A DNA stretch of 52,453 nt from an uncultured Candidatus Saccharibacteria bacterium (GCA_964548505.1 CAZJQE010000001.1:1-52453), one strand, 5' to 3'. Shown: positions 10,194-52,453, counted from the stretch's first letter. Numbers and translations: made by a program. The notes: a model not told the origin generated them from the letters alone.

Positions 10194-10263
10194 TTTGCAT
10201 TTTAAAAAATTGACAGTTAAAAAAGAAGGTATATTATAAAGAAGTTCATTTAATAATTTTATA

Positions 10264-10421
10264 AGATTGATTGGGGAAACTGGTTAAATTCCAGTACAGT
10301 GCCGCTACGGTAAGCTCCGACTAAGGTCGGAGACAAGTCCGAATGCCAATCATTCCAATATTCCCCGAGCAGGATATTAATTTTTAGTAAATTTAAATTC
10401 TGCTCCCGCAGAATTTTTTTA
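10264..10421 (+). promoter_or_regulatory. Cobalamin (B12) riboswitch-like leader with terminator expression platform
   Basis: P1 is GATTG(10266)/CAATC(10348). The core reads GGGGAAACTGGTTAAATTCCAGTACAGTGCCGCTACGGT. There is a hairpin GCTCCGAC/GTCGGAG and a B12-box-like AAGTCCGAATGCC. Then comes the terminator ATTCTGC-TCCC-GCAGAAT plus T7 (10397-10421), with a competing GAGCAG/CTGCTC pairing. Confidence 0.7.
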
Positions 10422-10426
10422 TTTTT

Positions 10427-10858
10427 ATGTTAAAAACAAAAACACAAAAAATCACAGTAATATTTATTTTAATATTAATATGTATTTTTCTAATTTCAAT
10501 CTATCAAAAAAAACCTAACAGAAATCCTAACAGGCAAGACCTGTTAAAAACTAAACAGGTCTTGCCTGTTAATAATATAGCCTTTCTTGAAGTAAGTGGA
10601 GTTAAATACGAAACTAGTATCCAGCAAGAAATAAGTGTCTATGATTTTATGCAAAAATTAAAAGATGAACGAAAAATAGATTTTGAATCAAAAAATTATA
10701 CTGGTATAGGAAAATTTATTGAGAGTATTAATGAGGTAAAAAATGGAGATAAAAGTTGGGTATATTATGTTAACAATAAAAAAGCAGAAATCGGTGTATC
10801 AAATTACAAAATTAAAAATAGAGATATTGTCTCGTGGAAATACGAGAATAGCTATTAG
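10427..10858 (+). CDS. Membrane-anchored DUF4430-domain protein (transcobalamin beta-domain-like)
   Basis: N-terminal TM helix followed by one domain: VSGVKYETSI...VYDFMQKL...GKFIESINEVKNGDKSWVYYVNNKKAEIGVSNYKIKNRDIVSWKY, which matches the DUF4430 pattern. Confidence 0.7.
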   Translation: MLKTKTQKITVIFILILICIFLISIYQKKPNRNPNRQDLLKTKQVLPVNNIAFLEVSGVKYETSIQQEISVYDFMQKLKDERKIDFESKNYTGIGKFIESINEVKNGDKSWVYYVNNKKAEIGVSNYKIKNRDIVSWKYENSY

Positions 10859-10891
10859 TTGTAAGTTAATGTTTCTAAGTTAGAAAATGAA

Positions 10892-12499
10892 ATGAAAAAT
10901 ATAAAAATAATATTATTGATAATATTTTCAGTTATTATTTTGTTTGGTATAGTAATTACTGCCCATGCAACACTCAATGTTGACACAGAAGTAAATGTAC
11001 CTGAAATTTGCAGTGTAGCTGATACTGACGGGGTTACTCATAACTATGGAGAAGTAAATCAATATCTTGCTATTTGCGCACTTTACTCAGCAATAAATAA
11101 CGGTTCAATATTTAACACTCAACTCTCAAATCAATATCCAAACCTAGGACTATTTGTTATTGCAATTAACAACGTTGTTGCAGACCCAAATAGCCAATAT
11201 TGGGCAATTTATCAAAATGGAAATTTTGCAAATTCTGGTATTACTTCACTCCCAGTCATAGCAGGAGATACAATAATGTTTCAACTCCACGATTTTTCCG
11301 ACAATAACCAAGGAGATCAGGTAACACTGCATATACATTCTTTGGGTGCACCAACACCTATGGGCTCTGGAGCACTTATCCAATCTACTAATACAACTTC
11401 TCTAGAGACTTTGGATATAGTTCCAGAAAAAATAATTAAACCAATTTTTGACACAAAAAAAGCCTTTGATTTTTTAATATCACAACAAAAAGAAGATGGG
11501 TCATGGAGCACAGATTTATACACTGATTGGTCAGCATTAGCAATTGAACCAAATGAAAATCTCCAAGAACAAAAAAACAAACTTGGAACTTATTTAAAAG
11601 AAAATAAATTATCTAATATAAGTTTAACTGATTATGAAAGACACGTTATGGCTCTTATGGCGCTTGGAATAAATCCATATAAATTAAATGGCGAAAACTA
11701 TGTAGATAAAATAATAAAAGAGTTTGATGGTAATCAGTTTGGGAATAAAGACGAGGATAATGACGACATCTTTGCACTTATAATTTTACAAAATGCGGGT
11801 TTTGGAAAAAATGAAGAAATTATAAATAATACAAGTAATTTTATTCTTTCAAAACAAAAAGAAAATGGTTCATGGGATGAAAATCCAGATATGACTGGTG
11901 CTGGAATTGAGTCTTTGGCATTTTTAAAAGAAAATGAACAAATAAAAAATGCATTAGAAAAAGCAAAGGAATATTTAAAACAAAACCAAAAAGACGATGG
12001 AGGATTTGGAAACATTTCTTCTACTGCGTGGGCAATAGAAGGTATAATTTCTCTAGGTGAAAAAGTAGAAAATTGGAAAAAAAATGATAATACTCCAATT
12101 GATTACTTAGCACAAAACCAAGATCAAGATGGCGGAATAAAAAATGAAAACAAAGATACAAAACTCTGGGAAACCATATATGTACTTTCTGCTATATCTG
12201 GTCACTCATGGACAGAAATTATGCAAAAGTTTGGTAAACCAATCATGGAACAAAAAGTAGAGATCATAGAAGAAAAAATCCCAGTTAACCTCTCTTATGG
12301 TAAAAATATAACTGAAACCAAAAAAATAGTTACTAAACAAAATATACCAAATGTAGCTAAAACTACTATTATAGAAAATTTAGGAACTATTAATACAGCC
12401 TCAGTCATTAACGCAACAACAAACACAAATGTGAAAACAAAAAATACAGAGAGTTCTTTACAAAGATTTCTAGGTAAAATTTTTGAAATGTTTTTTTAA
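10892..12499 (+). CDS. Exported DUF4430 plus prenyltransferase/squalene-cyclase-like alpha/alpha-repeat protein
   Basis: Signal peptide. DUF4430-like region ...GLFVIAINNVVADPNSQYWAIYQNGNFANSGITSLPVIAGDTIMFQL. Then repeated QQKEDGSWS, KQKENGSWD, NQKDDGGFG and NQDQDGGIK motifs typical of terpenoid-cyclase/prenyltransferase repeats. Confidence 0.7.
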   Translation: MKNIKIILLIIFSVIILFGIVITAHATLNVDTEVNVPEICSVADTDGVTHNYGEVNQYLAICALYSAINNGSIFNTQLSNQYPNLGLFVIAINNVVADPNSQYWAIYQNGNFANSGITSLPVIAGDTIMFQLHDFSDNNQGDQVTLHIHSLGAPTPMGSGALIQSTNTTSLETLDIVPEKIIKPIFDTKKAFDFLISQQKEDGSWSTDLYTDWSALAIEPNENLQEQKNKLGTYLKENKLSNISLTDYERHVMALMALGINPYKLNGENYVDKIIKEFDGNQFGNKDEDNDDIFALIILQNAGFGKNEEIINNTSNFILSKQKENGSWDENPDMTGAGIESLAFLKENEQIKNALEKAKEYLKQNQKDDGGFGNISSTAWAIEGIISLGEKVENWKKNDNTPIDYLAQNQDQDGGIKNENKDTKLWETIYVLSAISGHSWTEIMQKFGKPIMEQKVEIIEEKIPVNLSYGKNITETKKIVTKQNIPNVAKTTIIENLGTINTASVINATTNTNVKTKNTESSLQRFLGKIFEMFF

Positions 12500-23557: not shown

Positions 23558-23833
23558 CTAATAAGCGTAACTACAGAAAAGTTTCAATTTGTCAGTCCTT
23601 TTTAATTTTTTTATACGGGCTTCTTCTTGAGATGCAAGCGAACGATTTTTAAACTTTTTTGAATATACCACCTTTACTGGCCTTCGAGATGAAGTATACT
23701 TTGCTCCAAGCTTAGTGCTATTATGTTCCCCTACTCGCCGTTTTAAATCTGTAGTGATTCCAGTATACAAAGTCTTATCAGTACATAAAAGAATGTAAAG
23801 GAAATATGTTTTAGTTGTTTTTTTATTTTTCAT
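23558..23833 (-). CDS. GIY-YIG nuclease family protein (UPF0213-like)
   Basis: YFLYILLCTDKTLYTGITTDLKRRVGEHN. Confidence 0.85.
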   Translation of the reverse strand: MKNKKTTKTYFLYILLCTDKTLYTGITTDLKRRVGEHNSTKLGAKYTSSRRPVKVVYSKKFKNRSLASQEEARIKKLKRTDKLKLFCSYAY

Positions 23834-23919: not shown

Positions 23920-24103
23920 GGATAAACAATGCTCGCATTAGAGCAAAAAATATACTCCGTAGAAGCATTTTTTTCTGAATTTTGATGCTCAAACGGAGCA
24001 CGTGGTTAATGGGGCCGATTACCCCAAGGGCCACAGAACGTGATCCCATACAAAAGAGATGGCAACGTTCACCCACCACCGGACAACCGTTCGGTGGCTT
24101 TTT
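23920..24103 (+). ncRNA. Candidate structured small RNA (unclassified)
   Basis: Promoter TTGACA(23885)-17 nt-TAAACT(23908). The G+C-rich segment 23990-24097 contains nested hairpins (CTCCGT/ACGGAG, CACGTGG/CCAC..ACGTG, GGGG/CCCC). A terminator follows: CCACCGGAC-AACC-GTTCGGTGG plus CTTTTTATTT. There is no convincing plus-strand ORF. Confidence 0.4.
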
Positions 24104-25529
24104 ATTTCTTTCTTTTTCGTCTAGGTTTTGTTTTTGATTTTTGAGACACAGACACTCGTGAGACAAAATTATTTTGCATTTTTTCAAGTTCAGATTTTGA
24201 AAGTTTCTTAAATAGTTCCCCATTCTCTTTGCTTTCTTTTTTGAAATCTTTATCAAGCAGAAGTACTTCTGGATCTGCCAAGAGTGCATCTCTGTGAAAC
24301 CCCACGAGTCTGACGCCTTCCAAAGTACGTGCTCGAGAAAGTGCTACATAACCCATTCCATAAGCAAAAGTTTTTGATAAATCAATTTCTGCAGAATCCA
24401 AACTCATCCCTTGGCTTTTATGAATCGTGATAGCCCAAGCCAGACGCAAAGGTAATTGTGAAATCACTGCTTTTTGTTTTCCATTTTCTTCAATCCCCCA
24501 TTCTTCAGGAGTAACTGTGATTTCAGTTCCATTTTGTAACCTAATAATCGGACTATCGTCTGACAGGAATGTATAAACTTTTCCCCGCGTTCCATTAGCA
24601 TATCCTTTCTCAAAATTATTTTTTAAGAACATTACCTCTGCCCCAATTTTCAAACGCAAAATCTCGGGCGCCAAACAACTTTTCTTTAGTATTGAAACAA
24701 GTACCGGAGTCCCTTCATCTTTCATTTGGTAAGTTTTTTCAGACCCGCCAATTTTATTCAAACGTATTTGGTTGATAACGTCCACATCCATGTTGTGTGT
24801 ATAAAGCCGAGTTGGCTCTATGCCCAATGGTAACTTCACGTCAATTCTTGATTCAATAAGTTCAAAATGTTTGTCGGAAACATTTCCTGCGCGCACTGCA
24901 TTTAATATTTCTAAAAATTCTGTGTCTTCCTGACGATATTGCTCGGAGAGATAGCACACCGCCGGACGCATCGTCCGCCAAGCACGCGAATGAATTACCA
25001 TGTCTTTTGGGGTCTCATCTTCTGTCTCTTCTTCGTTTGTAAAAAGGTTAATACTTGGCTCTTTTTTTATTTCAGTCGGTGCAACACTTTTTCTAACCGG
25101 AGGCAATTGAAAAAAATCGCCACACAGGATCACTTGCATTCCGCCAAAAGCCCGTTCATTCCTTTTTAAATGCCGGCAAATCCATTCCACCATATCTAGC
25201 CTTTTCGCATCGAGCATTGAAACTTCATCAATAATTAAAACATTTGTGTTTTGAATTCTCTTTACTAAATATTCCTTGCTCTCCAACATTTCTAAATCAT
25301 ATTGTGACAGATTGTCTCGAATACCAATCCCCGCCCAAGCATGAATCGTCATTCCACTCAGATGTGTAGCCGCGATGCCGGTAGATGCTGTCACTGCCGT
25401 TGGAATATTTTTATCTCGCAAATAATTTATATATTGATTAAGAAGATGCGTTTTCCCAGAACCAGCCGAACCAGTGATGAAAACATTCACTCCACTTTTC
25501 AAAATCTCCAATGCTTCCTTTTGTGTCAT
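24102..25529 (-). CDS. Pif1/RecD-like SF1B DNA helicase
   Basis: Walker A GSAGSGKTHLL, VLIIDEVSMLD, ILCGDFFQLPPV and AITIHKSQGMSLD. Confidence 0.9.
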   Translation of the reverse strand: MTQKEALEILKSGVNVFITGSAGSGKTHLLNQYINYLRDKNIPTAVTASTGIAATHLSGMTIHAWAGIGIRDNLSQYDLEMLESKEYLVKRIQNTNVLIIDEVSMLDAKRLDMVEWICRHLKRNERAFGGMQVILCGDFFQLPPVRKSVAPTEIKKEPSINLFTNEEETEDETPKDMVIHSRAWRTMRPAVCYLSEQYRQEDTEFLEILNAVRAGNVSDKHFELIESRIDVKLPLGIEPTRLYTHNMDVDVINQIRLNKIGGSEKTYQMKDEGTPVLVSILKKSCLAPEILRLKIGAEVMFLKNNFEKGYANGTRGKVYTFLSDDSPIIRLQNGTEITVTPEEWGIEENGKQKAVISQLPLRLAWAITIHKSQGMSLDSAEIDLSKTFAYGMGYVALSRARTLEGVRLVGFHRDALLADPEVLLLDKDFKKESKENGELFKKLSKSELEKMQNNFVSRVSVSQKSKTKPRRKRKK

Positions 25530-27231: not shown

Positions 27232-27270
27232 TACTTTACTAAACTAAAGTAGAATAAAGATAAAAAATTT
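27232..27270 (+). repeat. TACTTTACTAAACTAAAGT motif, copy 1 (extended form)
   Basis: TACTTTACTAAACTAAAGTAGAATAAAGATAAAAAATTT. Nearly identical to the copy at 28671-28709. Confidence 0.85.
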
Positions 27271-27346
27271 AGTAAGGGTTTATTGAGTAATAATAAGCAA
27301 GGACAAATTAAGTGAAAGCCTTGCTCGTGGATACTAGTTCGCGAAA

Positions 27347-27574
27347 TTATTTTGCGGGTTCGTGGATGGTCTCGGGTTTTTGGGGCATAACAAAGGCCAT
27401 GAAAATATAAGCAATGATTCCAGGGAAACAAGCCGTAAAAACAGCAAGGAGAATATAGAAAACTCTTAGAATTGTTGGGTCAATTTCAAAATACTCCCCC
27501 ATCCCTCCCAATACCCCAAAAATAACCTTATTGTCTTTGCTTTTATATAATCTTTTATTTTGCATTTTGTTCAT
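27347..27574 (-). CDS. PspC-domain membrane protein
   Basis: RLYKSKDNKVIFGVLGGMGEYFEIDPTILRVFYILLAVF. Confidence 0.8.
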   Translation of the reverse strand: MNKMQNKRLYKSKDNKVIFGVLGGMGEYFEIDPTILRVFYILLAVFTACFPGIIAYIFMAFVMPQKPETIHEPAK

Positions 27575-27637
27575 AGTTTTATTATATTACATCTTTAAAA
27601 TTTCATACAATCACACTCGCAAGGACGGTCCTTGCGA
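27568..27637 (+). repeat. 70-bp direct repeat, copy 1 (start codon plus promoter-like AT tract plus REP palindrome)
   Basis: TGTTCATAGTTTTATTATATTACATCTTTAAAATTTCATACAATCACACTCGCAAGGACGGTCCTTGCGA. Five or six mismatches relative to 28563-28632. Confidence 0.85.
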
Positions 27638-27746
27638 ATAACGGTATACAAAGTCGTCAGTTTGTATCTTTTTGGTCGAACAATGTATACAAACCATTTA
27701 TCCACATTTTATTGAAAATTAATCAATTTCTTGTTATACTCTCTTT

Positions 27747-27831
27747 GTAGTGAAAACTACCCTCGCCTGAAGGATACCAGGATTGTATTTATACCCAACC
27801 CGAGCTTTACCGCTCGGGTTGGTTTGTTTTT
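27747..27831 (+). ncRNA. Candidate antisense small RNA overlapping the 3' end of the NYN gene
   Basis: Plus-strand promoter TTGAAA(27712)-17 nt-TATACT(27735). Then an 11-bp hairpin CCAACCCGAGC/GCTCGGGTTGG (27795-27822) plus TTTGTTTTT. No plus-strand ORF. The hairpin loop contains the NYN stop codon. Confidence 0.4.
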
Positions 27832-28445
27832 AGGTTATATTGTAAGAATTGAGCTAGATTTTCTGCAGGAATAAATTTATCAGCAACACTTTGGAGTTCT
27901 TTACTCATACGATTACGGGTACAAACAATAATAACTTTTTTACCTTTACTTTTTAAGTATCCTAGTAAGCCACCAAAATCACTATCTCCAGAGAAAAGCA
28001 TGACTGTGTCATATTTATCAATCTTTTGTAACATAGTCATAGTCATTTCTACGTCAAAATTACATTTTGGGAATTTCCCAACAAAAGTACCATCCTCGTC
28101 ATAGTGGGGTATCATTTTTATAGGTTTTGTTTTAACCTGAAAACCAGCTCTTCCGGCCTTATCTATTCTCCATACTGATTTATTATGTTTATCTTTTCCT
28201 TGATCTTCACTGAAGTGACCATAGTAGAAAAACTTCTTTACAGGAGAAACCGTATTGCAGACTTCTGCCAATTTTGTGATATCAACTTCTATTGAAATTT
28301 TAAATTTATTTTCTTCTGGCCAAAAATCTTTAGCCCAAGGACGGACATTACCAAAATCAATAAAAGTAAAAATCCTGCCATAATCTTCTGCTTTAAATAG
28401 ATAGCATTTCTGAAAATGTTCATGTTTTAAATCTTGTAAATCCAT
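27807..28445 (-). CDS. NYN/LabA-like (PIN-related) RNase domain protein
   Basis: FIDFGNV at the N-terminus, CNFDVEMTMTML and DTVMLFSGDSDFGGLLGYLKSKGKKVIIV match the NYN/DUF88 signature. Confidence 0.7.
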   Translation of the reverse strand: MDLQDLKHEHFQKCYLFKAEDYGRIFTFIDFGNVRPWAKDFWPEENKFKISIEVDITKLAEVCNTVSPVKKFFYYGHFSEDQGKDKHNKSVWRIDKAGRAGFQVKTKPIKMIPHYDEDGTFVGKFPKCNFDVEMTMTMLQKIDKYDTVMLFSGDSDFGGLLGYLKSKGKKVIIVCTRNRMSKELQSVADKFIPAENLAQFLQYNLKTNQPER

Positions 28446-28562
28446 AAAATAATTTTATCACAACTCCCCGCTAAATGCTTTTTGAGAACTAATTTCTTTA
28501 ATTCTTCCAAGTCTGCTAACTTTTTCTTATATATTTCTTCAAGTTTTTTAACTATTTGTTAT

Positions 28563-28632
28563 TGTTCATAATTTTATTATATTACATCTTTAAAATTTCA
28601 TACAACCACCCTCGCAAGGACCATCCTTGCGA
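28563..28632 (+). repeat. 70-bp direct repeat, copy 2
   Basis: TGTTCATAATTTTATTATATTACATCTTTAAAATTTCATACAACCACCCTCGCAAGGACCATCCTTGCGA. It carries an orphan ATGAACAA start that reads only MNNNK-stop. Confidence 0.85.
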
Positions 28633-28645
28633 GTAGTCCTTGCGA

Positions 28646-28662
28646 GCAAGAACGGTTCTTGC
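28646..28662. repeat. Palindrome GCAAGAAC-G-GTTCTTGC
   Basis: Read directly. It is adjacent to a partial TCCTTGCGA half-site. Confidence 0.8.
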
Positions 28663-28670
28663 ATATTTCC

Positions 28671-28709
28671 CTACTTTACTAAACTAAAGTGGAATAAAGA
28701 TAAAAATTT
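28671..28709 (+). repeat. TACTTTACTAAACTAAAGT motif, copy 2 (extended form)
   Basis: CTACTTTACTAAACTAAAGTGGAATAAAGATAAAAATTT. Confidence 0.85.
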
Positions 28710-28742
28710 GGAAAAGAGACTGAGCAAGGGTAATCCTTGCAA

Positions 28743-29270
28743 TTAATTACTTTCCCATTCTGCTATTAATAAAGACTCAGGTAATATTCCGCAAGAAAGT
28801 GCCCCTTCAATAAATTTAAGCTGACCACTGGTAAGTTTATCTTTTCCTTTATTTTTTGCTTCACAAAAAAGAATTTCATTCCCTTTCCACGCAAAAACAT
28901 CAAAGCATGCACTTGTTTTTGCTTTTGTCCATATTTTTTTTAATAATTCTTCTTTTTCCTTTGGAATTGATATATGCTCTGTTTTCAACTTCCAATCTTT
29001 CGGCATAGTTCTTAAATAATGTGTTCCCCCGTATGTTTCAACCCACACCCCACTCCAACCATCTGCTAGTAAAATACGCAAGATAACCAATTCTGCAAAA
29101 ATTGGTTCTCCGCCATAATCAACAAGTGGCTTCCCTCCATAATTAAAATTATTTATTGGTTCTTTCCATAAAGAAAATTTTGGGTTACACGTCGGCAGGG
29201 CGACAATTTTCCCCGATGGTAATGAAATATTGGTTTTTTTATTAGGAATTAAAATAGATGGTAGTTTCAT
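28743..29270 (-). CDS. VRR-NUC-like PD-(D/E)xK nuclease, putative
   Basis: The C-terminal half ...CFDVFAWKGNEILFCEAKNKGKDKLTSGQLKFIEGAL fits D...E-x-K followed by the conserved Gln helix of VRR-NUC domains. Confidence 0.55.
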   Translation of the reverse strand: MKLPSILIPNKKTNISLPSGKIVALPTCNPKFSLWKEPINNFNYGGKPLVDYGGEPIFAELVILRILLADGWSGVWVETYGGTHYLRTMPKDWKLKTEHISIPKEKEELLKKIWTKAKTSACFDVFAWKGNEILFCEAKNKGKDKLTSGQLKFIEGALSCGILPESLLIAEWESN

Positions 29271-29291
29271 GAATTATTTTTAAGCAATTTA

Positions 29292-29310
29292 AGCAAGAAC
29301 TGTTCTTGCT
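29292..29310. repeat. Palindrome AGCAAGAAC-T-GTTCTTGCT
   Basis: Read directly. Lies between the DUF2075 and VRR-NUC genes. Confidence 0.8.
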
Positions 29311-29335
29311 AGGTAAAATAAATTTTCTTATAAAA

Positions 29336-31309
29336 CTATATTACTTCAAATCCAATACTTTTTAAGTAGTCAAATATTGGGTTGTAAAAATCTGGGTTAC
29401 GGGTAGGATCTAAAGGATCACCAGGTGGGATTACAATAACCATTCCTTGTCTAGCACGAGTGAGTAAAACACGATACGCATTTTTTAAATACATTTGTCG
29501 TTCAACTTTTTTAATATAATTCCATTTACTACCAACAAAGGATCGATGATCCCAACCATTTTTTGTATACCTAAAATCAGCATCCCAAAATACACACGAC
29601 CAATCTAATTCCAAACCTTGGATATCAAATTCCGTTGCTACGTCTTCAAGATAGTAGGATGACCGAACGTCTTCCTTTCCGTCAAGAAACCAATGAATCG
29701 GATCCATTGGAGACTTCACAAATATTGCATGTGGTTTTAATCTCTCTGCCTGCGAAGAAACAACCATACCGTAACGTTCAGAACCACGAGCTTGTTTTTT
29801 TAACCACTCTTTTGCTTTTGAAATATCACGAGTAATTACAATTGGGTATTTTAATCTCACCTGTGCTAGTGTTTTTTGTGCTTCCATCACATTCATATCT
29901 AAAATCTGCTTTACGAGCAAAGAAACATGCTCTGCACGAAATGAACGCATTGAGACAGACAAATGCAACTCGTCTTTTGTAAATACATTTTTATGAGTTT
30001 TAATTTGGTCTAAAATTTTCCCCGCACCGTACTCACTATCAGTAAGTCGAGAAGATATATAAATATTCCAGTCTGGAAATGAACGATTTAAGCATTCAAT
30101 CCATTCGCTAATTCCTGCTTCCCCTGTATTTATTTCTTGACCTCCTCCAACTAAGCAAACGACAACTGCCCAATCAGGATGGCGATCAAGACAAGAAATT
30201 AGGAACTCCGGTTCAGATTGATTAAAATATGGTATACCTTTCTTTCTTTGCATAAAATTTGCTGTTTGCGATAAATTCCAAGCTCTCTGTGCTTCATCAA
30301 AAAGAGCAACATGTTCAATCGGTGGTTTTTCATCCTTAAGACAATCATCCCGAAAATTATGAACGTTTTGAATAAATAATTTAACATTCCGCATTGCATC
30401 ACCTTTGGTAATTTTATTTCCTTTTTCTTTTTCGTGAGAAACTTTATCACGAGTTAGTGCTTCCCGTAATATAGCGACAAGCGGTCCGTTACCAGAAAGA
30501 AAAACACTGTAAAGATCATTCGCTTTATCAATATGTTTATTAGCAATATTTAATCCAACTAATGTTTTTCCAGCACCTGGTACTCCAGTAATAAAGCAGA
30601 TCGATTTTCGTGATTTATCTCGTGAAGATTTAATTATTTCTGATACAACCTCGGACGTTTGGGATAAATTAATTGCCCCGGCATCACTTCGTGAAATATT
30701 TTCAACAGAATGACCTCGGTACAAAGCCATCGCCGCCTCAACGATAGTAGGTGTCGGACAGTATCTTCCTTTTTCCCATTCGGTCATATTAATAGTAGCA
30801 CCACCCAATAGAGACAGAGTATTATCTATGACGATCTTTAACGTTTCCACACTCGATTTTATAGGGAAAAGTACCTTATCGCTTTGCGGAGTTAATAAAA
30901 TTACAGGGGTAATATTTTTTGCTTTCGTTGCAATAAGAACGGGAGCAATGAAATGATCGTGGCTTGAGCTATGAAAGTTTTTTAAGTCTAAAGCGTAATC
31001 CCAAACTTGATCTACTGCACTTGAAGAAAATTCTTTATCTCCAACTTTAAATTCAAAAATAAAAATAGTTGATCCAATAATTAAGACAACATCAATTCTC
31101 TTCCCCATTCTTGGAATGGAGTATTCAAAATATATTGAACCAGAATAGGAGGCTAAAACTTTTTGCAGAATATTAATTTCTTCTACCCATGCATCTCGTT
31201 GATTTTGCCCTAAATCAAAATCACTATTTCTTGTTAGTTTACCAAGTATCTCGTCTACATCAGATTTTATGAAAAGAGCAATCGAATTAGAATAGTATTC
31301 TCGTTTCAT
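29336..31309 (-). CDS. DUF2075 / Schlafen-type ATPase with an N-terminal PD-(D/E)xK-like module (Nhi-like)
   Basis: N-terminus ...[22 protein letters not shown] (D..E-x-K). Walker [12 protein letters not shown]. Walker B-like [12 protein letters not shown]-terminus ...[14 protein letters not shown]. Confidence 0.75.
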
Positions 31310-31312
31310 AAT

Positions 31313-31504
31313 TTATTTAACAAAATAATCTAAAGATTTTTTATAAAGTTTTGCAAACTCCTTAAGTTGCAAAACATCGAATCGTCTTTCCCCAGCTTCA
31401 AGTGATAGCGAAATCGCCAAATCTTTTGGATTGTGGAACTGTTTCCAGTCACGAGCTTCCCGGAAAGCCAATATTTTCTTCAATAGTTTGTCTGTTTCCG
31501 CCAT
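31313..31504 (-). pseudogene. Chimeric remnant: MazG-like pyrophosphohydrolase N-terminus fused to an XRE-HTH C-terminus
   Basis: ILAFREARDWKQFHNPKDLAISLSLEAGE is the start of a MazG/dCTPase-like helix pair. ...LQLKEFAKLYKKSLDYFVK looks like the end of an HTH_3 domain. At only 63 aa, neither domain is complete. Confidence 0.45.
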
Positions 31505-31626
31505 TTGGTTATTCTACCACTTTATTAAGAAAAATCTATTAAGATTAAAGGGGTAAACTATAAGTGTAGTTTTTCCAAATTTACGTAATTTTTGATAAAA
31601 TATAGATGGAAATTTTATGTGGAGTA

Positions 31627-31647
31627 TACTTTACTAAACTAAAGTAG
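31627..31647 (+). repeat. TACTTTACTAAACTAAAGT motif, copy 3
   Basis: TACTTTACTAAACTAAAGTAG, about 125 nt upstream of the minus-strand ATG at 31504. Confidence 0.85.
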
Positions 31648-32181: not shown

Positions 32182-35100
32182 TTATTTCTGTTCACGTCTT
32201 CTTGCAATCAACACGACTAAAATAATTCCAAAAACTGTGATTAAGACCAAAATTAATTTGATATTTTCGGTTGAATTTATTGCTGAAGCGGTTTGACTGG
32301 TATCTAAATTTTTATTTTGATTTTTCGCTATGTTTTTGGTTTCAAGTTTATTCAGAGTAACTTTTTTATTTAAGAACGGTCCCCGAACGAGAGTCTCTGA
32401 CTCCGTAATGGGCATGTCTTGGACTCCTTTAAGAATGGTTCCTTCAGGTAAATTTAAATTCGCTCCTCCTTCGCTATTAAGCTTCGGAAGGACAAGTAAG
32501 GACTGACCTTTGGCTTCATTAAGAACTGACCTTTGGGAATCAGATGTAAGTAAAATCCCACCACCAGCAGAATGTCGTATCGGTATATTATTTTCAACAA
32601 TTGGAATAGCAGAAGGAACAGAAGTTGCTTTGATAATAATTTCTTTTATCTGCTCTACGTTGCCGGCTTTATCTGTAGAAAAATATTGAACTACAATATC
32701 GGAGCCTCCTGGAGTAGATGTAATGGTTATTGGATTTTCATTTTTTTTCCAAGTCACTCCCCCGTCGAGCGAATAATCTGTCTCTAAAATTCCAGAATTG
32801 CCATCTATCGGTAAAAGCGTAACGACATTGCCCGAAACTTCACTTTGGGTCTCGGGGGCAATTATGTCACTTGCTTTTTCATGGTCTAAAGTTACATCGG
32901 GCAAAATTTCTTTTTCAAAATCGCCATCTCCGTCTTCATCAACTTTTACAATTGGGTTTACAATATTTCCACTCTCGTCTGGAAAAGAAGTTTCTGGAAT
33001 ATCAATTTTTATAACTTCATTTCCAGTATCACTTGGAATATTATTGAATTCTATTTCTTTAATTTTCTCATCATTGCCATTTATGTTTCCTATTGAAATA
33101 TCATAGGATCCTGCGCTAACTCCCCCACCTCCGCCTAGTGTGCCGTCAGTGTTCACAGTAGTACTTATAAATTGATAACTCCCTCCCCTTGGTAAAAATA
33201 CAAAAGTTGCTCCACCAATACGGTCGTACTGTACTCCAGGGATATTGTTTTCAATTGGTACGTTGTTTGTGTCAGTGTCTTCCCCGCTTGAATTTATATT
33301 TTCAAGAGGTCCTGTGCGATTGCCCAACTGATCATAGATGACTGGTAAAACATTTTTTTCTAGTTCAAGAAAACTTTGCAAGCTAATCACGACTCCATCT
33401 ATATCACAAGAAAGCATTGTATTTGATACATTTGGGAAATTGGCTGGAGCTTCACCTTTCAATAATGAGACAAGGGTTTCTTTTAAGCCACTTGCCGACG
33501 GCAAGGTGCTATGAGAATAACCTTTCACATAATATTTCTTGTTGTACTTGCCGTTGCTCGCAGATACTATAGGCACCGTGTCGTCGCCATTACCATAACC
33601 AATTTGAAATGTGTCTACAAGTTTGGTCCAAAGCGTGGTCCAAGATTTTTTCTTTTTGAGAGTTATATCCGTAATTGTTTTAGTAGTGCCACAACCGGTA
33701 AAATCAGCAGTGTTTATACCCGAAAGGTCAAGATTATCAATACTCTCGTGCAAACTCTCGGCAATCGGAAACATTTTTGAATTCCTGCCATTTTTCAGCA
33801 TAAAATTTTTCGTCTCATCATATGAAAGATATGGTGTACCTAAAAGCACAATCGGACGCGGAGTTGCCATATCATTCACATATTTTCTCCCCAAATCATC
33901 AACATATTTTTTACTTGGAAGAAGTTCAAAAACTCCAGGCATATTTTGAGAAATAAATTTTACTTTGTCTGGATTTAAGAATCTAAATGGAGAAACATCT
34001 TTTATATTTATTCCCATATCATCTCCATACATCAAAGCCTTGAAGGCTTTCGGCGCACCAATATGAGGCGTTGCAATAAAAATAAGTTGGTCAACTTTAT
34101 CTCCACCATTGTCAGCAATGTATTTCTTCGCAACGAGCCCTCCCATGGAATGTGCCACAAGGTCTACTTTGGCGGCCCCAGTTTCGGCGAGCACCGCATC
34201 AATTTTATCTTTTAATTTCTGGGCACTATCTGCATTTGATTTTCGCCAATCATACGGAAAAACAAATAAATCTTTCCCTTCTTTATAGCCTGCCTTATTT
34301 AACTCTGAAATCAATCCGCCAAATGTATCACTATTAAAACTCTTGCCTAGCATATCAACTTTGACACTACGAATAATGTCACCCAATTTCATCGGACGTT
34401 CAGGGTCATCAATGCCACTAGGCAGAAGTGCTAAGTCATCCAAGAAATTGTCGGAAACTGAAAGAATGAGTTTACTTATGTTGGGCCAAAGTTCCCCAAA
34501 TTCGCCATAATCTTTTTTGATTTCTGTACCCATGATGCCGGGAATCAAAATAACTGGGTCGCGAGTTTTGCACAATTCATTTTCACAAAATGGAATAAAG
34601 TCTACGTAGTTCGAAACGATCCCTGCCGTGCCGGTAGGATTTTTGTCAGGATGAAATGGCCCCGAACTATTGCCCCAGAAATTGTTTTCGGCATTTATGT
34701 TTTTCGGAATATTTGGATAGGTATTTATGCTAAAGTTTGGAAAATCTATAATTTTTGAATTGTGAATTTCGGCAATAATAACCGAATCACCAAAAATCGA
34801 AATAGCATCTTGCACTCCACCTGAAAAAATAGAATGGTCCACATCGAGACTCGAAGGTTGGCTGACATATGGAAAAGTATCATAAACTTCAATGCAAGCG
34901 TACTCTGGACAATTCGTCATCTTAGAATTTTCAAGATTGAAATTGCTGTGATTGTAAACACTTACAAAATCTCCATCTTTGGAACCATGTGAAAAATCTA
35001 AATCATCCCCTGTTACTGTGCTATTTCTATAAACCAAAATCGCGGGATGAAAATTGCCAGTAATATTTTTTATCGTAGTATCTTTTATATTTAAAATACT

Positions 35101-35826
35101 TTCATGGAAAACATCAATGCCGTCGTTGGCAATATTGTCTATCAAGGAATTCCCGAGATTCACACTGCTTGAATTGAATATCATGAAACACGAATCTGAT
35201 AAGTTCGTGCAATTTAAAACATCGGCATCAATATTGCTCACATTTTGCATAATGCCTAAATTCCCATCGGTAATTTCTACATTTTTTAGATTTAAATATG
35301 TATGGTCAAGATACGCAACCATATCTGCATATTTGAAAACTGCATTTTTAATAAAATTGCTATGTGAATCTAGAAAATTGATCCCTTGCCAATCATTTTG
35401 TAATGGCTCAAATAACGATCCACAAGTCTCGCCTATTTTATTGCCATCATCATCAAAATCTTCATCACAATATGAATCTTCGTTCGTATCGCCACCAACG
35501 GTGTCGTCGTAGTACGAAGTAAAATAAACTTTATTACTCTCTTCACCATTTATGACAATGTCACCAAAAATATTTAAAGAAACATCACTGGAAGGGTCGA
35601 ATTTTACGACAACACCTGGGTCAATGGTCAAAACCGAACCTTTTAGAACATTAATACTATTCCTTATCACATAAGGGCTGTTGTCGATGGTCCATGTGGT
35701 ATCAAATAAAATATTATTAGTTATATCGGTTGATGCAAAAGTATTTGGAGAAAAAATAAAAAACAAAAAGAGAGTGAGGGCTCCCGTAAAAAGATAAAAT
35801 GACAAATTGTCATTCGATTTTTTCAT
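32182..35826 (-). CDS. Large surface protein: beta-helix region plus LCAT/PGAP1-like alpha/beta-hydrolase lipase plus Ig-like domains plus C-terminal TM anchor
   Basis: Signal peptide. The N-terminal 400 aa are rich in Asn/Ile beta-helix-type repeats. The lipase core carries FVFPYDWRKSN and the nucleophile elbow VAHSMGGLV. The segment YSLDGGVTWKK...VQYFSTDKAGNVE is an Ig-like module. The C-terminal anchor is LILVLITVFGIILVVLIARRREQK. Confidence 0.75.
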   Translation of the reverse strand: MKKSNDNLSFYLFTGALTLFLFFIFSPNTFASTDITNNILFDTTWTIDNSPYVIRNSINVLKGSVLTIDPGVVVKFDPSSDVSLNIFGDIVINGEESNKVYFTSYYDDTVGGDTNEDSYCDEDFDDDGNKIGETCGSLFEPLQNDWQGINFLDSHSNFIKNAVFKYADMVAYLDHTYLNLKNVEITDGNLGIMQNVSNIDADVLNCTNLSDSCFMIFNSSSVNLGNSLIDNIANDGIDVFHESILNIKDTTIKNITGNFHPAILVYRNSTVTGDDLDFSHGSKDGDFVSVYNHSNFNLENSKMTNCPEYACIEVYDTFPYVSQPSSLDVDHSIFSGGVQDAISIFGDSVIIAEIHNSKIIDFPNFSINTYPNIPKNINAENNFWGNSSGPFHPDKNPTGTAGIVSNYVDFIPFCENELCKTRDPVILIPGIMGTEIKKDYGEFGELWPNISKLILSVSDNFLDDLALLPSGIDDPERPMKLGDIIRSVKVDMLGKSFNSDTFGGLISELNKAGYKEGKDLFVFPYDWRKSNADSAQKLKDKIDAVLAETGAAKVDLVAHSMGGLVAKKYIADNGGDKVDQLIFIATPHIGAPKAFKALMYGDDMGINIKDVSPFRFLNPDKVKFISQNMPGVFELLPSKKYVDDLGRKYVNDMATPRPIVLLGTPYLSYDETKNFMLKNGRNSKMFPIAESLHESIDNLDLSGINTADFTGCGTTKTITDITLKKKKSWTTLWTKLVDTFQIGYGNGDDTVPIVSASNGKYNKKYYVKGYSHSTLPSASGLKETLVSLLKGEAPANFPNVSNTMLSCDIDGVVISLQSFLELEKNVLPVIYDQLGNRTGPLENINSSGEDTDTNNVPIENNIPGVQYDRIGGATFVFLPRGGSYQFISTTVNTDGTLGGGGGVSAGSYDISIGNINGNDEKIKEIEFNNIPSDTGNEVIKIDIPETSFPDESGNIVNPIVKVDEDGDGDFEKEILPDVTLDHEKASDIIAPETQSEVSGNVVTLLPIDGNSGILETDYSLDGGVTWKKNENPITITSTPGGSDIVVQYFSTDKAGNVEQIKEIIIKATSVPSAIPIVENNIPIRHSAGGGILLTSDSQRSVLNEAKGQSLLVLPKLNSEGGANLNLPEGTILKGVQDMPITESETLVRGPFLNKKVTLNKLETKNIAKNQNKNLDTSQTASAINSTENIKLILVLITVFGIILVVLIARRREQK

Positions 35827-35950: not shown

Positions 35951-35971
35951 CACTTTAGTTTAGTAAAGTAG
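35951..35971 (-). repeat. TACTTTACTAAACTAAAGT motif, copy 4 (inverted)
   Basis: The plus strand reads CACTTTAGTTTAGTAAAGTAG. It lies about 125 nt upstream of the minus-strand ATG at 35826. Confidence 0.85.
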
Positions 35972-52399: not shown

Positions 52400-52453
52400 T
52401 GGGAGATCGTCTAATGGTAGGACATATCCCTCTGGAGGATATTATCTTGGTTC
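52400..52453 (+). tRNA. tRNA-Gln (anticodon CUG), truncated by the window end
   Basis: Acceptor TGGGAGA. D arm GTCT-AATGGTA-GGAC. Anticodon arm TATCC-CTCTGGA-GGATA (U33, CTG at positions 34-36). T stem CTTGG followed by TTC... The U1 start is as in bacterial tRNA-Gln. Confidence 0.75.

Follow-up and report, generated by a model that had tools for sequence, protein, structure and literature searches.

A Structured Small RNA Gene Linked to an NYN RNase Gene within a Probable Mosaic of Nucleic-Acid-Targeting Cassettes in a Saccharibacteria Chromosome

The Locus

The window analysed here is a 52-kb stretch (52,453 nucleotides; GCA_964548505.1 CAZJQE010000001.1) of the chromosome of an uncultured Candidatus Saccharibacteria bacterium of the Patescibacteria. 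The block under study lies at 27.2-31.6 kb of this window and, according to the list of open reading frames (ORFs), carries three genes in succession on the minus strand (Table 1). The first encodes an RNase of the NYN/LabA type, the second a protein of 175 amino acids (p175) with a VRR-NUC-like nuclease core, and the third a nuclease-helicase with a DUF2075 domain, upstream of which lies a short remnant of a MazG-like and a helix-turn-helix (HTH) gene. A gene for a structured small RNA (sRNA) stands on the opposite strand at the end of the NYN gene. The GC content of the block is not distinct from that of its surroundings.

Most of these features had been described in an earlier note, made from the sequence of the window, which proposed a modular accessory island whose three minus-strand genes might act together. 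The consecutive genes, the domains, the remnant, a recurring motif and a direct repeat are real. All of the domain and remnant calls hold, including that of p175, which was accepted as likely although it has no support at the Pfam threshold. The modular, accessory character of the stretch was also borne out, as it forms a variable slot in which relatives have differing neighbours. The joint action of the three genes was not, since no two of the families were found adjacent in other genomes. The block is read here, with a probability of roughly 0.7, as a mosaic within a variable slot, made up of three nucleic-acid-targeting cassettes that were acquired independently and are transcribed separately.

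Co-Occurrence of the Three Families

Loci with flanks of up to 10 kb (given below as L numbers) were fetched for each family: 27 with the 657-aa DUF2075 family, 80 with the NYN family and six with p175. All proteins of the window were searched against these 113 loci using tblastn, and Pfam-annotated contexts were examined as well. No locus of the 113 holds two of the three families within its flanks. NYN or p175 was found in none of the 27 DUF2075 loci, DUF2075 or p175 in none of the 80 NYN loci, and NYN or DUF2075 in none of eight p175 loci, a number that includes contexts added later. In the window, the three genes are set apart by terminator-like hairpins, a 19-nt motif, a duplicated promoter-bearing segment and promoter-like sequence.

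A single cooperating multi-gene defence system made up of NYN, p175 and DUF2075 (plus the remnant) would agree with the adjacency of the genes, their common strand and the nuclease-type domains present in all of them. However, the families are never together in the related loci, each has a separate conserved partner or none (the sRNA with NYN, an HTH gene with DUF2075), and hairpins and repeats intervene between the genes. The earlier note had itself stated that genes which never co-occur in other genomes would speak against its proposal, and as the three families never do, this is what was found. Such a system is therefore highly improbable and close to refuted.

The NYN Gene and Its Small RNA

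The NYN domain and its SGDSDF signature had been recognized in the earlier note. Both were recovered: the protein matches PF01936 with 69.5 bits (cut-off 24.2) over residues 25-193, and SGDSDF occupies residues 152-157. D30, N33, D131, E133, D146, D154 and D156, among them the acidic active-site residues of the PIN-like fold, do not vary among 24 relatives. The family returned 368 matches, with lengths of 171-227 aa among the matches listed, and its named hosts are Taylor-, Magasanik- and Staskawiczbacteria. The partner found for NYN is the opposite-strand sRNA gene, which had been missed.

A comparison of intergenic DNA using blastn revealed that about 110 nt past the NYN stop codon are conserved in about 30 NYN loci, often above the level of the protein (in L035, 93% identity over 110 nt with a protein that is 84% identical). 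Aligned in register, they have the appearance of a gene encoded opposite to NYN, with a promoter, a hairpin (P1), two further helices (P2 and P3), a conserved linker and a terminator. P2 and P3 are interleaved and give a compact H-type pseudoknot, and both helices covary. Exactly 6 nt separate the end of the -10 element from P1 in 21 of 25 loci, and the -35 element matches TTGACA at five or more of six positions in 16 of 25; both elements are conserved, whereas the sequence of the spacer is not. The promoter is kept in all 25 loci, as is the hairpin with its U-run. In 19 of 26 distinct sRNA loci, a DnaA-box consensus with no more than one mismatch was found, in one orientation or the other, 39-63 nt ahead of P1, compared with 2.3% of background windows. 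The gap between the sRNA core and the NYN stop codon ranges from -36 to +25 nt, with a terminator of about 33 nt beyond the core, and in most loci the 3' part of the sRNA is estimated to reach into the end of the NYN ORF; no overlap occurs in L056 and L058.

The structure is carried by covariation. In an ungapped alignment of 18 distinct sRNAs, all 216 cells pair, and seven of the 12 pairs are changed on both sides. There are 27 compensatory cells, against 6.8+-2.0 in shuffles (0/500), and controls with a slid partner pair in 25-47%. In a larger alignment that includes the pseudoknot, pairing is seen in 99.7% of 380 cells, with compensatory changes at 10 of 14 pairs; the strand of the sRNA is fixed because 16 of these cells are G-U. 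Two other readings of the region were discarded. An extra helix between GAUAC (27773-77) and GUAU (27785-88) was dropped after inspection of the alignment by eye because variants break the pairing. A 47-aa ORF (27731-27874) was rejected as coding because natural variants carry insertions of 1-2 nt and paired compensatory changes.

A covariance model of 54 nt was searched over the window and 99 loci, about 1 Mb in total. A single match of 38-84 bits was obtained from the window and from each of 36 loci, out of 37 (L034-L070) with an NYN identity of about 50% or higher; all of these matches are on the strand opposite NYN and adjoin its stop codon. In the remaining locus, L065, there is only a degenerate copy (19.3 bits). 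The DUF2075 and p175 control loci gave no match, and neither did the remaining 52 kb of the window. Weak matches to a variant RNA stand beside NYN relatives of 36-40% identity (L079 845-901, L084 990-1046, L085 686-742 and L093 762-818, all on the minus strand). The variant has the same P1, with a CCCGC/GCGGG hairpin in place of the pseudoknot, and hints at a wider family of NYN-linked RNAs.

No Rfam match at the gathering threshold or at E<=1 was found at 27.0-32.2 kb. The sRNA core was not found in IMG/VR, and searches of phage and plasmid collections with the sRNA region gave no match. Literature searches on NYN with an RNA motif, on NYN with a type III toxin-antitoxin (TA) system and on PDC-S41, the family of the DUF2075 protein (see below), returned no prior description. 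The comparative evidence thus shows a previously undescribed gene, predicted to encode a structured sRNA, that is strictly linked to NYN.

The NYN gene and the sRNA form a two-part unit of about 0.8 kb that recurs in varied surroundings. It lies between the methylase gene (mod) and res of a type III restriction-modification (R-M) system in L042, after hsdR and a DUF3800 gene in L036 and L037, before a Type ISP enzyme in L051, after a reverse transcriptase in L055 and near a serine recombinase in L039. In the window, DNA conservation with other cassettes extends from ~27691 to ~28507, which is about 50 nt inside each copy of a 74-nt direct repeat. Since the conserved DNA is bounded inside repeats that carry the start and leader of pspC, the cassette was inserted into, or recombined at, the pspC leader.

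Possible Modes of Action of the NYN-sRNA Cassette

The NYN RNase would be restrained by its sRNA. This may occur through binding of the protein, as in type III TA systems, through antisense pairing between the 3' end of the RNA and the NYN mRNA, for which certain type I TA pairs offer a parallel, or through both; the position of the conserved pseudoknot outside the overlap would suit the protein-binding option. If the sRNA were lost upon infection or under replication stress, the RNase would be set free, and the DnaA-box-like site may couple the supply of the RNA to the replication state. Tentatively, NYN-sRNA is put forward as a possible new class of RNA-controlled RNase toxin or abortive-infection module, widespread in Patescibacteria. 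In it, a PIN-like NYN toxin would be joined by a single-copy, convergent, pseudoknotted antitoxin RNA; the promoter of this RNA would be DnaA-gated via the conserved TTATCCACA site, so that release of the RNase would be tied to the replication state of the cell or to phage interference with it.

A parallel exists with the type III TA systems ToxIN, CptIN and TenpIN (PMC3401426, PMC5086642), in which an endoribonuclease-type protein is likewise tightly linked to a small pseudoknotted RNA gene within a compact mobile cassette associated with defence loci. The protein fold differs, being NYN/PIN-like and not ToxN-like. The gene layout differs as well: type III RNAs are tandem repeats upstream on the same strand, whereas the RNA described here, known from sequence alone, is single-copy, convergent and has its own promoter. 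The cassette thus has a pseudoknotted RNA strictly linked to an RNase gene, and does not have the upstream same-strand tandem repeats.

Convergent antisense RNAs with a 3' overlap are found in type I TA pairs such as txpA/RatA and bsrG/SR4 of Bacillus subtilis. The convergent orientation and, in most NYN loci, the overlap between the 3' ends of the RNA and the protein gene are shared with these pairs. However, the protein is a soluble RNase of 212 aa and not a small membrane peptide, and the structured core lies outside an overlap that is itself absent in some loci. An overlap in all members and a small hydrophobic toxin, by which the type I pairs are recognized, are both lacking in NYN-sRNA.

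It is conceivable, though somewhat doubtful, that the element beside NYN is a cis-antisense or riboswitch-like regulator and not a trans-acting, protein-binding RNA. Read-through of a ligand- or factor-controlled terminator would then send antisense transcription into NYN, or pairing of the 3' end would destabilize the NYN mRNA. The convergent orientation in every locus, the estimated overlap in most of them and the resemblance of a compact pseudoknot directly upstream of a terminator to small riboswitch aptamers are all in keeping with such a regulator. On the other hand, the overlap varies and is missing in L056 and L058, the invariant core is mostly outside it, and no Rfam aptamer is matched. 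The sequence of the terminator also changes freely while the core stays, so no conserved anti-terminator pairing is visible.

With respect to known defence candidates, the PADLOC model HEC-09 matches residues 130-191 of NYN only (E=7e-7). HEC-09 is an Hma-embedded NYN protein with conserved aspartates, embedded in defence systems (10.1101/2024.01.29.577857). Both proteins thus have an NYN domain with conserved aspartates and both are found embedded in defence systems, but the match is partial, and HEC-09 has an extra N-terminal HTH-like domain and no reported RNA partner.

The DUF2075 Nuclease-Helicase and Its Degraded Partner

The largest gene of the block had been described as encoding a DUF2075 P-loop protein with a D..ExK module of its own at the N-terminus, and both parts were recovered. 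PF09848 matches residues 235-628 with E=3e-83. The helicase motifs GxPGxGKT (242-249), DEAQ (338-341) and TRAR (617-620, motif VI) are invariant, and so are E62, D73, E86-x-K88 and Q101 of the N-terminus in 38 relatives, where they sit in a predicted alpha-beta-beta-beta-alpha-beta core. A full-length structure model has a mean predicted local distance difference test score (pLDDT) of 66. A Foldseek search with this low-confidence model recovers the helicase (SLFN11, SLFN14, Helitron, RecD) and does not recover the N-terminal nuclease fold; the nuclease is predicted from the invariant motifs and the predicted secondary structure. A search of PDB sequences gave nothing meaningful, and an exact-sequence look-up of the protein returned no identical record.

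The status of this gene as a defence candidate, claimed in the earlier note, agrees with a full-length match to the PADLOC family PDC-S41 (E=1.6e-287, residues 1-656 on profile positions 1-652 of 657). The PDC families are 145 predicted candidates that were chosen for their embedding in BREX, DISARM or type I R-M loci (10.1101/2024.01.29.577857). The gene of the window resembles PDC-S41 from end to end and is likewise a single-gene unit. However, PDC-S41 is a prediction by "guilt by embedding", while the gene of the window is not embedded in an R-M locus and its optional HTH partner is degraded.

By analogy with Nhi, the protein probably unwinds and cuts foreign DNA. Nhi of Staphylococcus epidermidis (10.1101/776245) and the Nhi-like proteins (Millman et al., 10.1101/2022.05.11.491447) share with it an N-terminal PD-(D/E)xK nuclease, a DUF2075 superfamily 1 (SF1) helicase and the single-gene format. 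The PADLOC models of Nhi and AbiO, however, match the Walker A stretch only, about 50 residues with E~1e-6 to 1e-7 (for Nhi, residues 219-270 with E=1e-6), and the protein has 657 aa as opposed to ~470 profile positions. The homology does not run along the protein, and from these matches DUF2075 is assigned to a family different from Nhi, with a convergent or very distant relationship.

At least 8000 proteins match with E<=1e-10, and the best 120 of them are 75-95% identical and almost all 656-662 aa long. The family occurs in many classes of Patescibacteria and, at 67-79% identity, in metagenome-assembled genomes of Elusimicrobiota, Syntrophaceae, Planctomycetes, Hydrogenedentales and Nitrospirae. 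This spread across phyla indicates horizontal transfer under strong constraint, as judged from sequence comparison. No relative was found in IMG/VR, and among GenBank phages there is one unannotated 12.7-kb contig with a 49% identical relative. The neighbours of DUF2075 differ in every context and an HTH partner is present in six contexts only; DUF2075 thus stands on its own, and its regulator is optional. In L018/L115 (7158-7838) and L116, DUF2075 is immediately preceded by an ORF that resembles a homing endonuclease of the LAGLIDADG type. That contig is labelled Gammaproteobacteria, and as its DUF2075 is 91% identical to a Patescibacteria one, mis-binning is possible.

The 63-aa ORF that ends 3 nt before the DUF2075 start had been described as a MazG-like/HTH chimera, and tblastn of both halves agrees. 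Its first 39 residues share 67% identity with the N-terminal end of a 115-aa MazG-like gene product of L005, while residues 35-63 share 79-90% with the C-terminal 29 residues of a 73-aa XRE-type HTH protein, whose gene stands 3-4 nt upstream of DUF2075 in other genomes. As the ORF matches both the N-terminus of MazG and the C-terminus of the HTH protein, the label of chimeric remnant is correct. No complete MazG (PF03819/PF12643) or XRE HTH (PF01381) domain was found in it, and by these searches the fusion retains neither the HTH nor the MazG catalytic core. Recombination would have destroyed the optional XRE-type HTH partner by fusing it to a MazG-like stub; DUF2075 itself is intact, its regulator destroyed. 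In L005 (5297-9974; GCA_034680565.1), the 115-aa MazG-like gene is followed by a 774-aa paralogue, in which a DUF2075 domain is combined with a nuclease at the N-terminus and an S24/LexA-type peptidase at the C-terminus, and then by the 657-aa protein. The MazG stub in the window suggests that a similar array once stood upstream of its DUF2075 gene.

The p175 Protein

p175 has no match in Pfam, VRR-NUC (PF08774) included, nor in NCBIfam, PHROGs or PADLOC. It belongs to a family of about 146 proteins of 55-74% identity, all organism-named members of which are Patescibacteria. In 30 aligned relatives, E60, D124, E137-x-K139 and Q150 are invariant; seven of the 30 match VRR_NUC weakly and below threshold (best E=7e-4), and five match Hjc. 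The structure model is of high confidence (pLDDT 94), and its top PDB matches are the VRR-NUC domains of FAN1, Hjc resolvases and the stand-alone VRR_NUC proteins 4qbn/4qbl, with E values of 0.01 to 0.6, none at E<=1e-3, and only ~55 aligned columns. A profile search against PDB sequences gave nothing meaningful. From its motifs and modelled fold, p175 is likely a VRR-NUC-like PD-(D/E)xK nuclease, though not a proven member of that family. It shares the D...ExK...Q motif with VRR-NUC/FAN1 and archaeal Hjc proteins, among which its best PDB matches fall. It differs from them in the lack of any Pfam threshold match, in an extra beta-rich N-terminal part of ~55 residues and in the restriction of its family to Patescibacteria. 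It may act as a structure-specific DNase.

The position of p175 is informative. L007, a 237-kb contig, shares with the window the order p175, TspO (71%), Pif1 (51%), and everything between p175 and TspO differs between the two. Directly upstream of p175, where the window has DUF2075, L007 has a cluster with a type I R-M system, made up of hsdM, Bro-N, SduA_C, hsdS, hsdR and YgjP. The site of p175 is therefore conserved while the slots on either side of it vary, and in both genomes one of these slots contains defence or candidate defence genes. In L119 (5419-9730), a p175 relative stands between an HNH gene and a gene for a large serine recombinase, with a DNA methylase and the pair of a diversity-generating retroelement (reverse transcriptase and bAvd) nearby; given these neighbours, it lies inside a mobile element.

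Defence or Housekeeping

Several points weigh against the interpretation given here. PDC-S41 is a candidate by prediction only (Payne et al., 10.1101/2024.01.29.577857), and the contexts of DUF2075 are mostly housekeeping genes and not defence islands. p175 stands beside R-M or mobile-element genes in only two of five distinct contexts outside the window. All NYN loci were fetched via the NYN protein, so that the linkage counts cover NYN-bearing loci only. HEC-09, the only NYN candidate that was assayed, gave no protection (10.1101/2024.01.29.577857); it may be speculated that an unrecognised RNA partner bears on its inactivity as a stand-alone candidate.

The three genes might then be ordinary nucleic-acid housekeeping genes of Patescibacteria, with NYN and its RNA acting in RNA turnover, p175 resolving junctions or flaps and DUF2075 serving as a repair helicase-nuclease. 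This would account for the flanks of DUF2075 and for its unusual conservation (67-95% identity across phyla). It would also suit the housekeeping surroundings of p175 in L010, L011 and L121, the fact that the VRR-NUC and Hjc-type proteins retrieved by the structure search are resolvases, and the DnaA-box-like site, which would fit cell-cycle control. However, the distribution of all three genes is patchy and their neighbourhood differs from genome to genome, a pattern characteristic of accessory genes that are mobile. Moreover, NYN-sRNA cassettes sit inside R-M operons, and the DUF2075 family was chosen for its embedding in BREX/DISARM/type I R-M loci (10.1101/2024.01.29.577857). A housekeeping role for the three genes is accordingly considered unlikely, and independently acquired cassettes with a putative role in defence are preferred.

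Repeats and Intergenic Elements

The earlier note had placed copies of a motif at 27232, 28671 and 31627 and taken them to bound and punctuate the block. Three exact copies are indeed present, the second of which starts at 28672, and a fourth at 35952 had been missed (four exact copies against a chance expectation of 0.02). The motif is not a block boundary, because the fourth copy lies 4.3 kb further on. It is a 19-nt inverted repeat of 7-6-7 design and is intergenic in all four copies. The 38 nt shared by copies 1 and 2 sit just past gene terminators, and one copy falls at the start region predicted for a promoter-like site ahead of the remnant/DUF2075 unit. The motif was not found in any fetched locus, and the syntenic relative L007 has none even when three mismatches are allowed. 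An integron-like or recombinase-bounded cassette array was considered and rejected because no recombinase domain was found in the ORFs checked around the four copies. A single exact copy in an IMG/VR contig (L122) was set aside as well, as its similarity reaches only ~24 nt and fits chance in AT-rich DNA. The motif is confined to a 9-kb part of the 52-kb window, with no recombinase or intact regulator gene nearby.

The direct repeat, given as 70 bp in the earlier note, is present with a length of 74 nt, and its two copies are 92% identical. Palindromes described there as repetitive extragenic palindrome (REP)-like exist too. They are not island markers, because the same two hairpin families recur at 26.4, 45.2, 46.8 and 47.5 kb; they are ordinary terminator-type intergenic hairpins found genome-wide.

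Table 1. Features of the block and its surroundings, in window coordinates.
Feature	Position	Strand	Remarks
19-nt quasi-palindromic motif, copy 1	27232-27250	+	7-6-7, TACTTTA-CTAAAC-TAAAGTA; 38 nt common with copy 2
pspC-domain membrane protein gene, 75 aa	27347-27574	-	PF04024 E=5e-22; bystander, 5' region duplicated
74-nt direct repeat, copy 1	27567-27640		pspC start codon, leader, hairpin; right-hand flank of NYN-sRNA cassette
TTATCCACA (DnaA-box consensus)	27698-27706	+	just upstream of sRNA -35
sRNA promoter	27712-27740	+	TTGAAA, 17 nt, TGtTATACT; -35 27712-27717; TG-extended -10 27735-27740
Structured sRNA, ~85 nt	27747-27831	+	convergent with NYN; 3' end overlaps NYN stop codon
sRNA hairpin P1	27747-27760	+	GNRA or UUCG loop
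sRNA pseudoknot helix P2	27761-63 with 27771-73	+	
sRNA pseudoknot helix P3	27766-69 with 27778-81	+	
sRNA terminator hairpin	27795-27822	+	GC-rich; after conserved linker, followed by U-tract
NYN/LabA-type RNase gene, 212 aa	27807-28445	-	acidic residues D30, D131, D154, D156 intact
74-nt direct repeat, copy 2	28562-28635		dead 5-codon stub of pspC start; left-hand flank of NYN-sRNA cassette
Hairpin between genes	28612-28665		
19-nt motif, copy 2	28672-28690	+	
Hairpin between genes	28715-28735		
p175 gene, 175 aa	28743-29270	-	C-terminal VRR-NUC-like PD-(D/E)xK core; Patescibacteria-specific; syntenic position shared with L007
Palindromic terminator-like hairpin	29292-29314		between DUF2075 and p175; member of genome-wide hairpin family
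Nuclease-helicase gene, 657 aa	29336-31309	-	N-terminal PD-(D/E)xK (predicted) + DUF2075/Schlafen-group-3 SF1 helicase; PADLOC PDC-S41
63-aa in-frame chimera	31313-31504	-	MazG-like N-terminus + C-terminal 29 aa of HTH partner; non-functional remnant
19-nt motif, copy 3	31627-31645	+	123 nt upstream of remnant/DUF2075 unit
19-nt motif, copy 4, inverted	35952-35970	-	outside the block of the earlier note

Other Features of the Window

Genes of the Pif1 helicase family were found near DUF2075 in L021 (601-1806) and L033 (3-260), near distant NYN relatives in L096 (2546-2668) and L098 (1556-2926), and in the window itself (24102-25529); this recurrence may be a coincidence in small genomes or reflect a shared hotspot. 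The window also encodes a 91-aa GIY-YIG protein (23558-23833, minus strand), relatives of which (40-68% identity) lie within 10 kb of DUF2075 or NYN in L019, L020, L025, L075 and L077. Motif copy 4 precedes a gene (32182-35826, minus strand) for a 1214-aa secreted or anchored protein that contains a beta-helix and a lipase domain of the LCAT/PGAP1 type and that may bear on the episymbiotic way of life of these bacteria. A cobalamin riboswitch at the Rfam gathering threshold (10226-10368, plus strand, 31.5 bits) lies upstream of plus-strand genes at 10427-12499. A partial tRNA (52400-52453, plus strand, Rfam 29.4 bits) is cut by the end of the window; ARAGORN reports no tRNA there because the gene is truncated.

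Significance

The block does not amount to a new three-gene system, and its largest gene belongs to an already catalogued candidate. The identity of 67-95% across distant phyla marks PDC-S41 as a very mobile and strongly constrained gene that is worth experiment. The NYN-sRNA module is compact and is missed by annotation pipelines, and phage resistance in candidate-phyla bacteria is poorly understood. The module lends itself to direct testing, since about 37 natural variants carry compensatory mutations, its promoter is defined and there is a candidate site for a regulator. If the proposal is true, an RNase and structured-RNA cassette that hops into R-M operons would add a toxin fold and a gene layout to the RNA-antitoxin systems.

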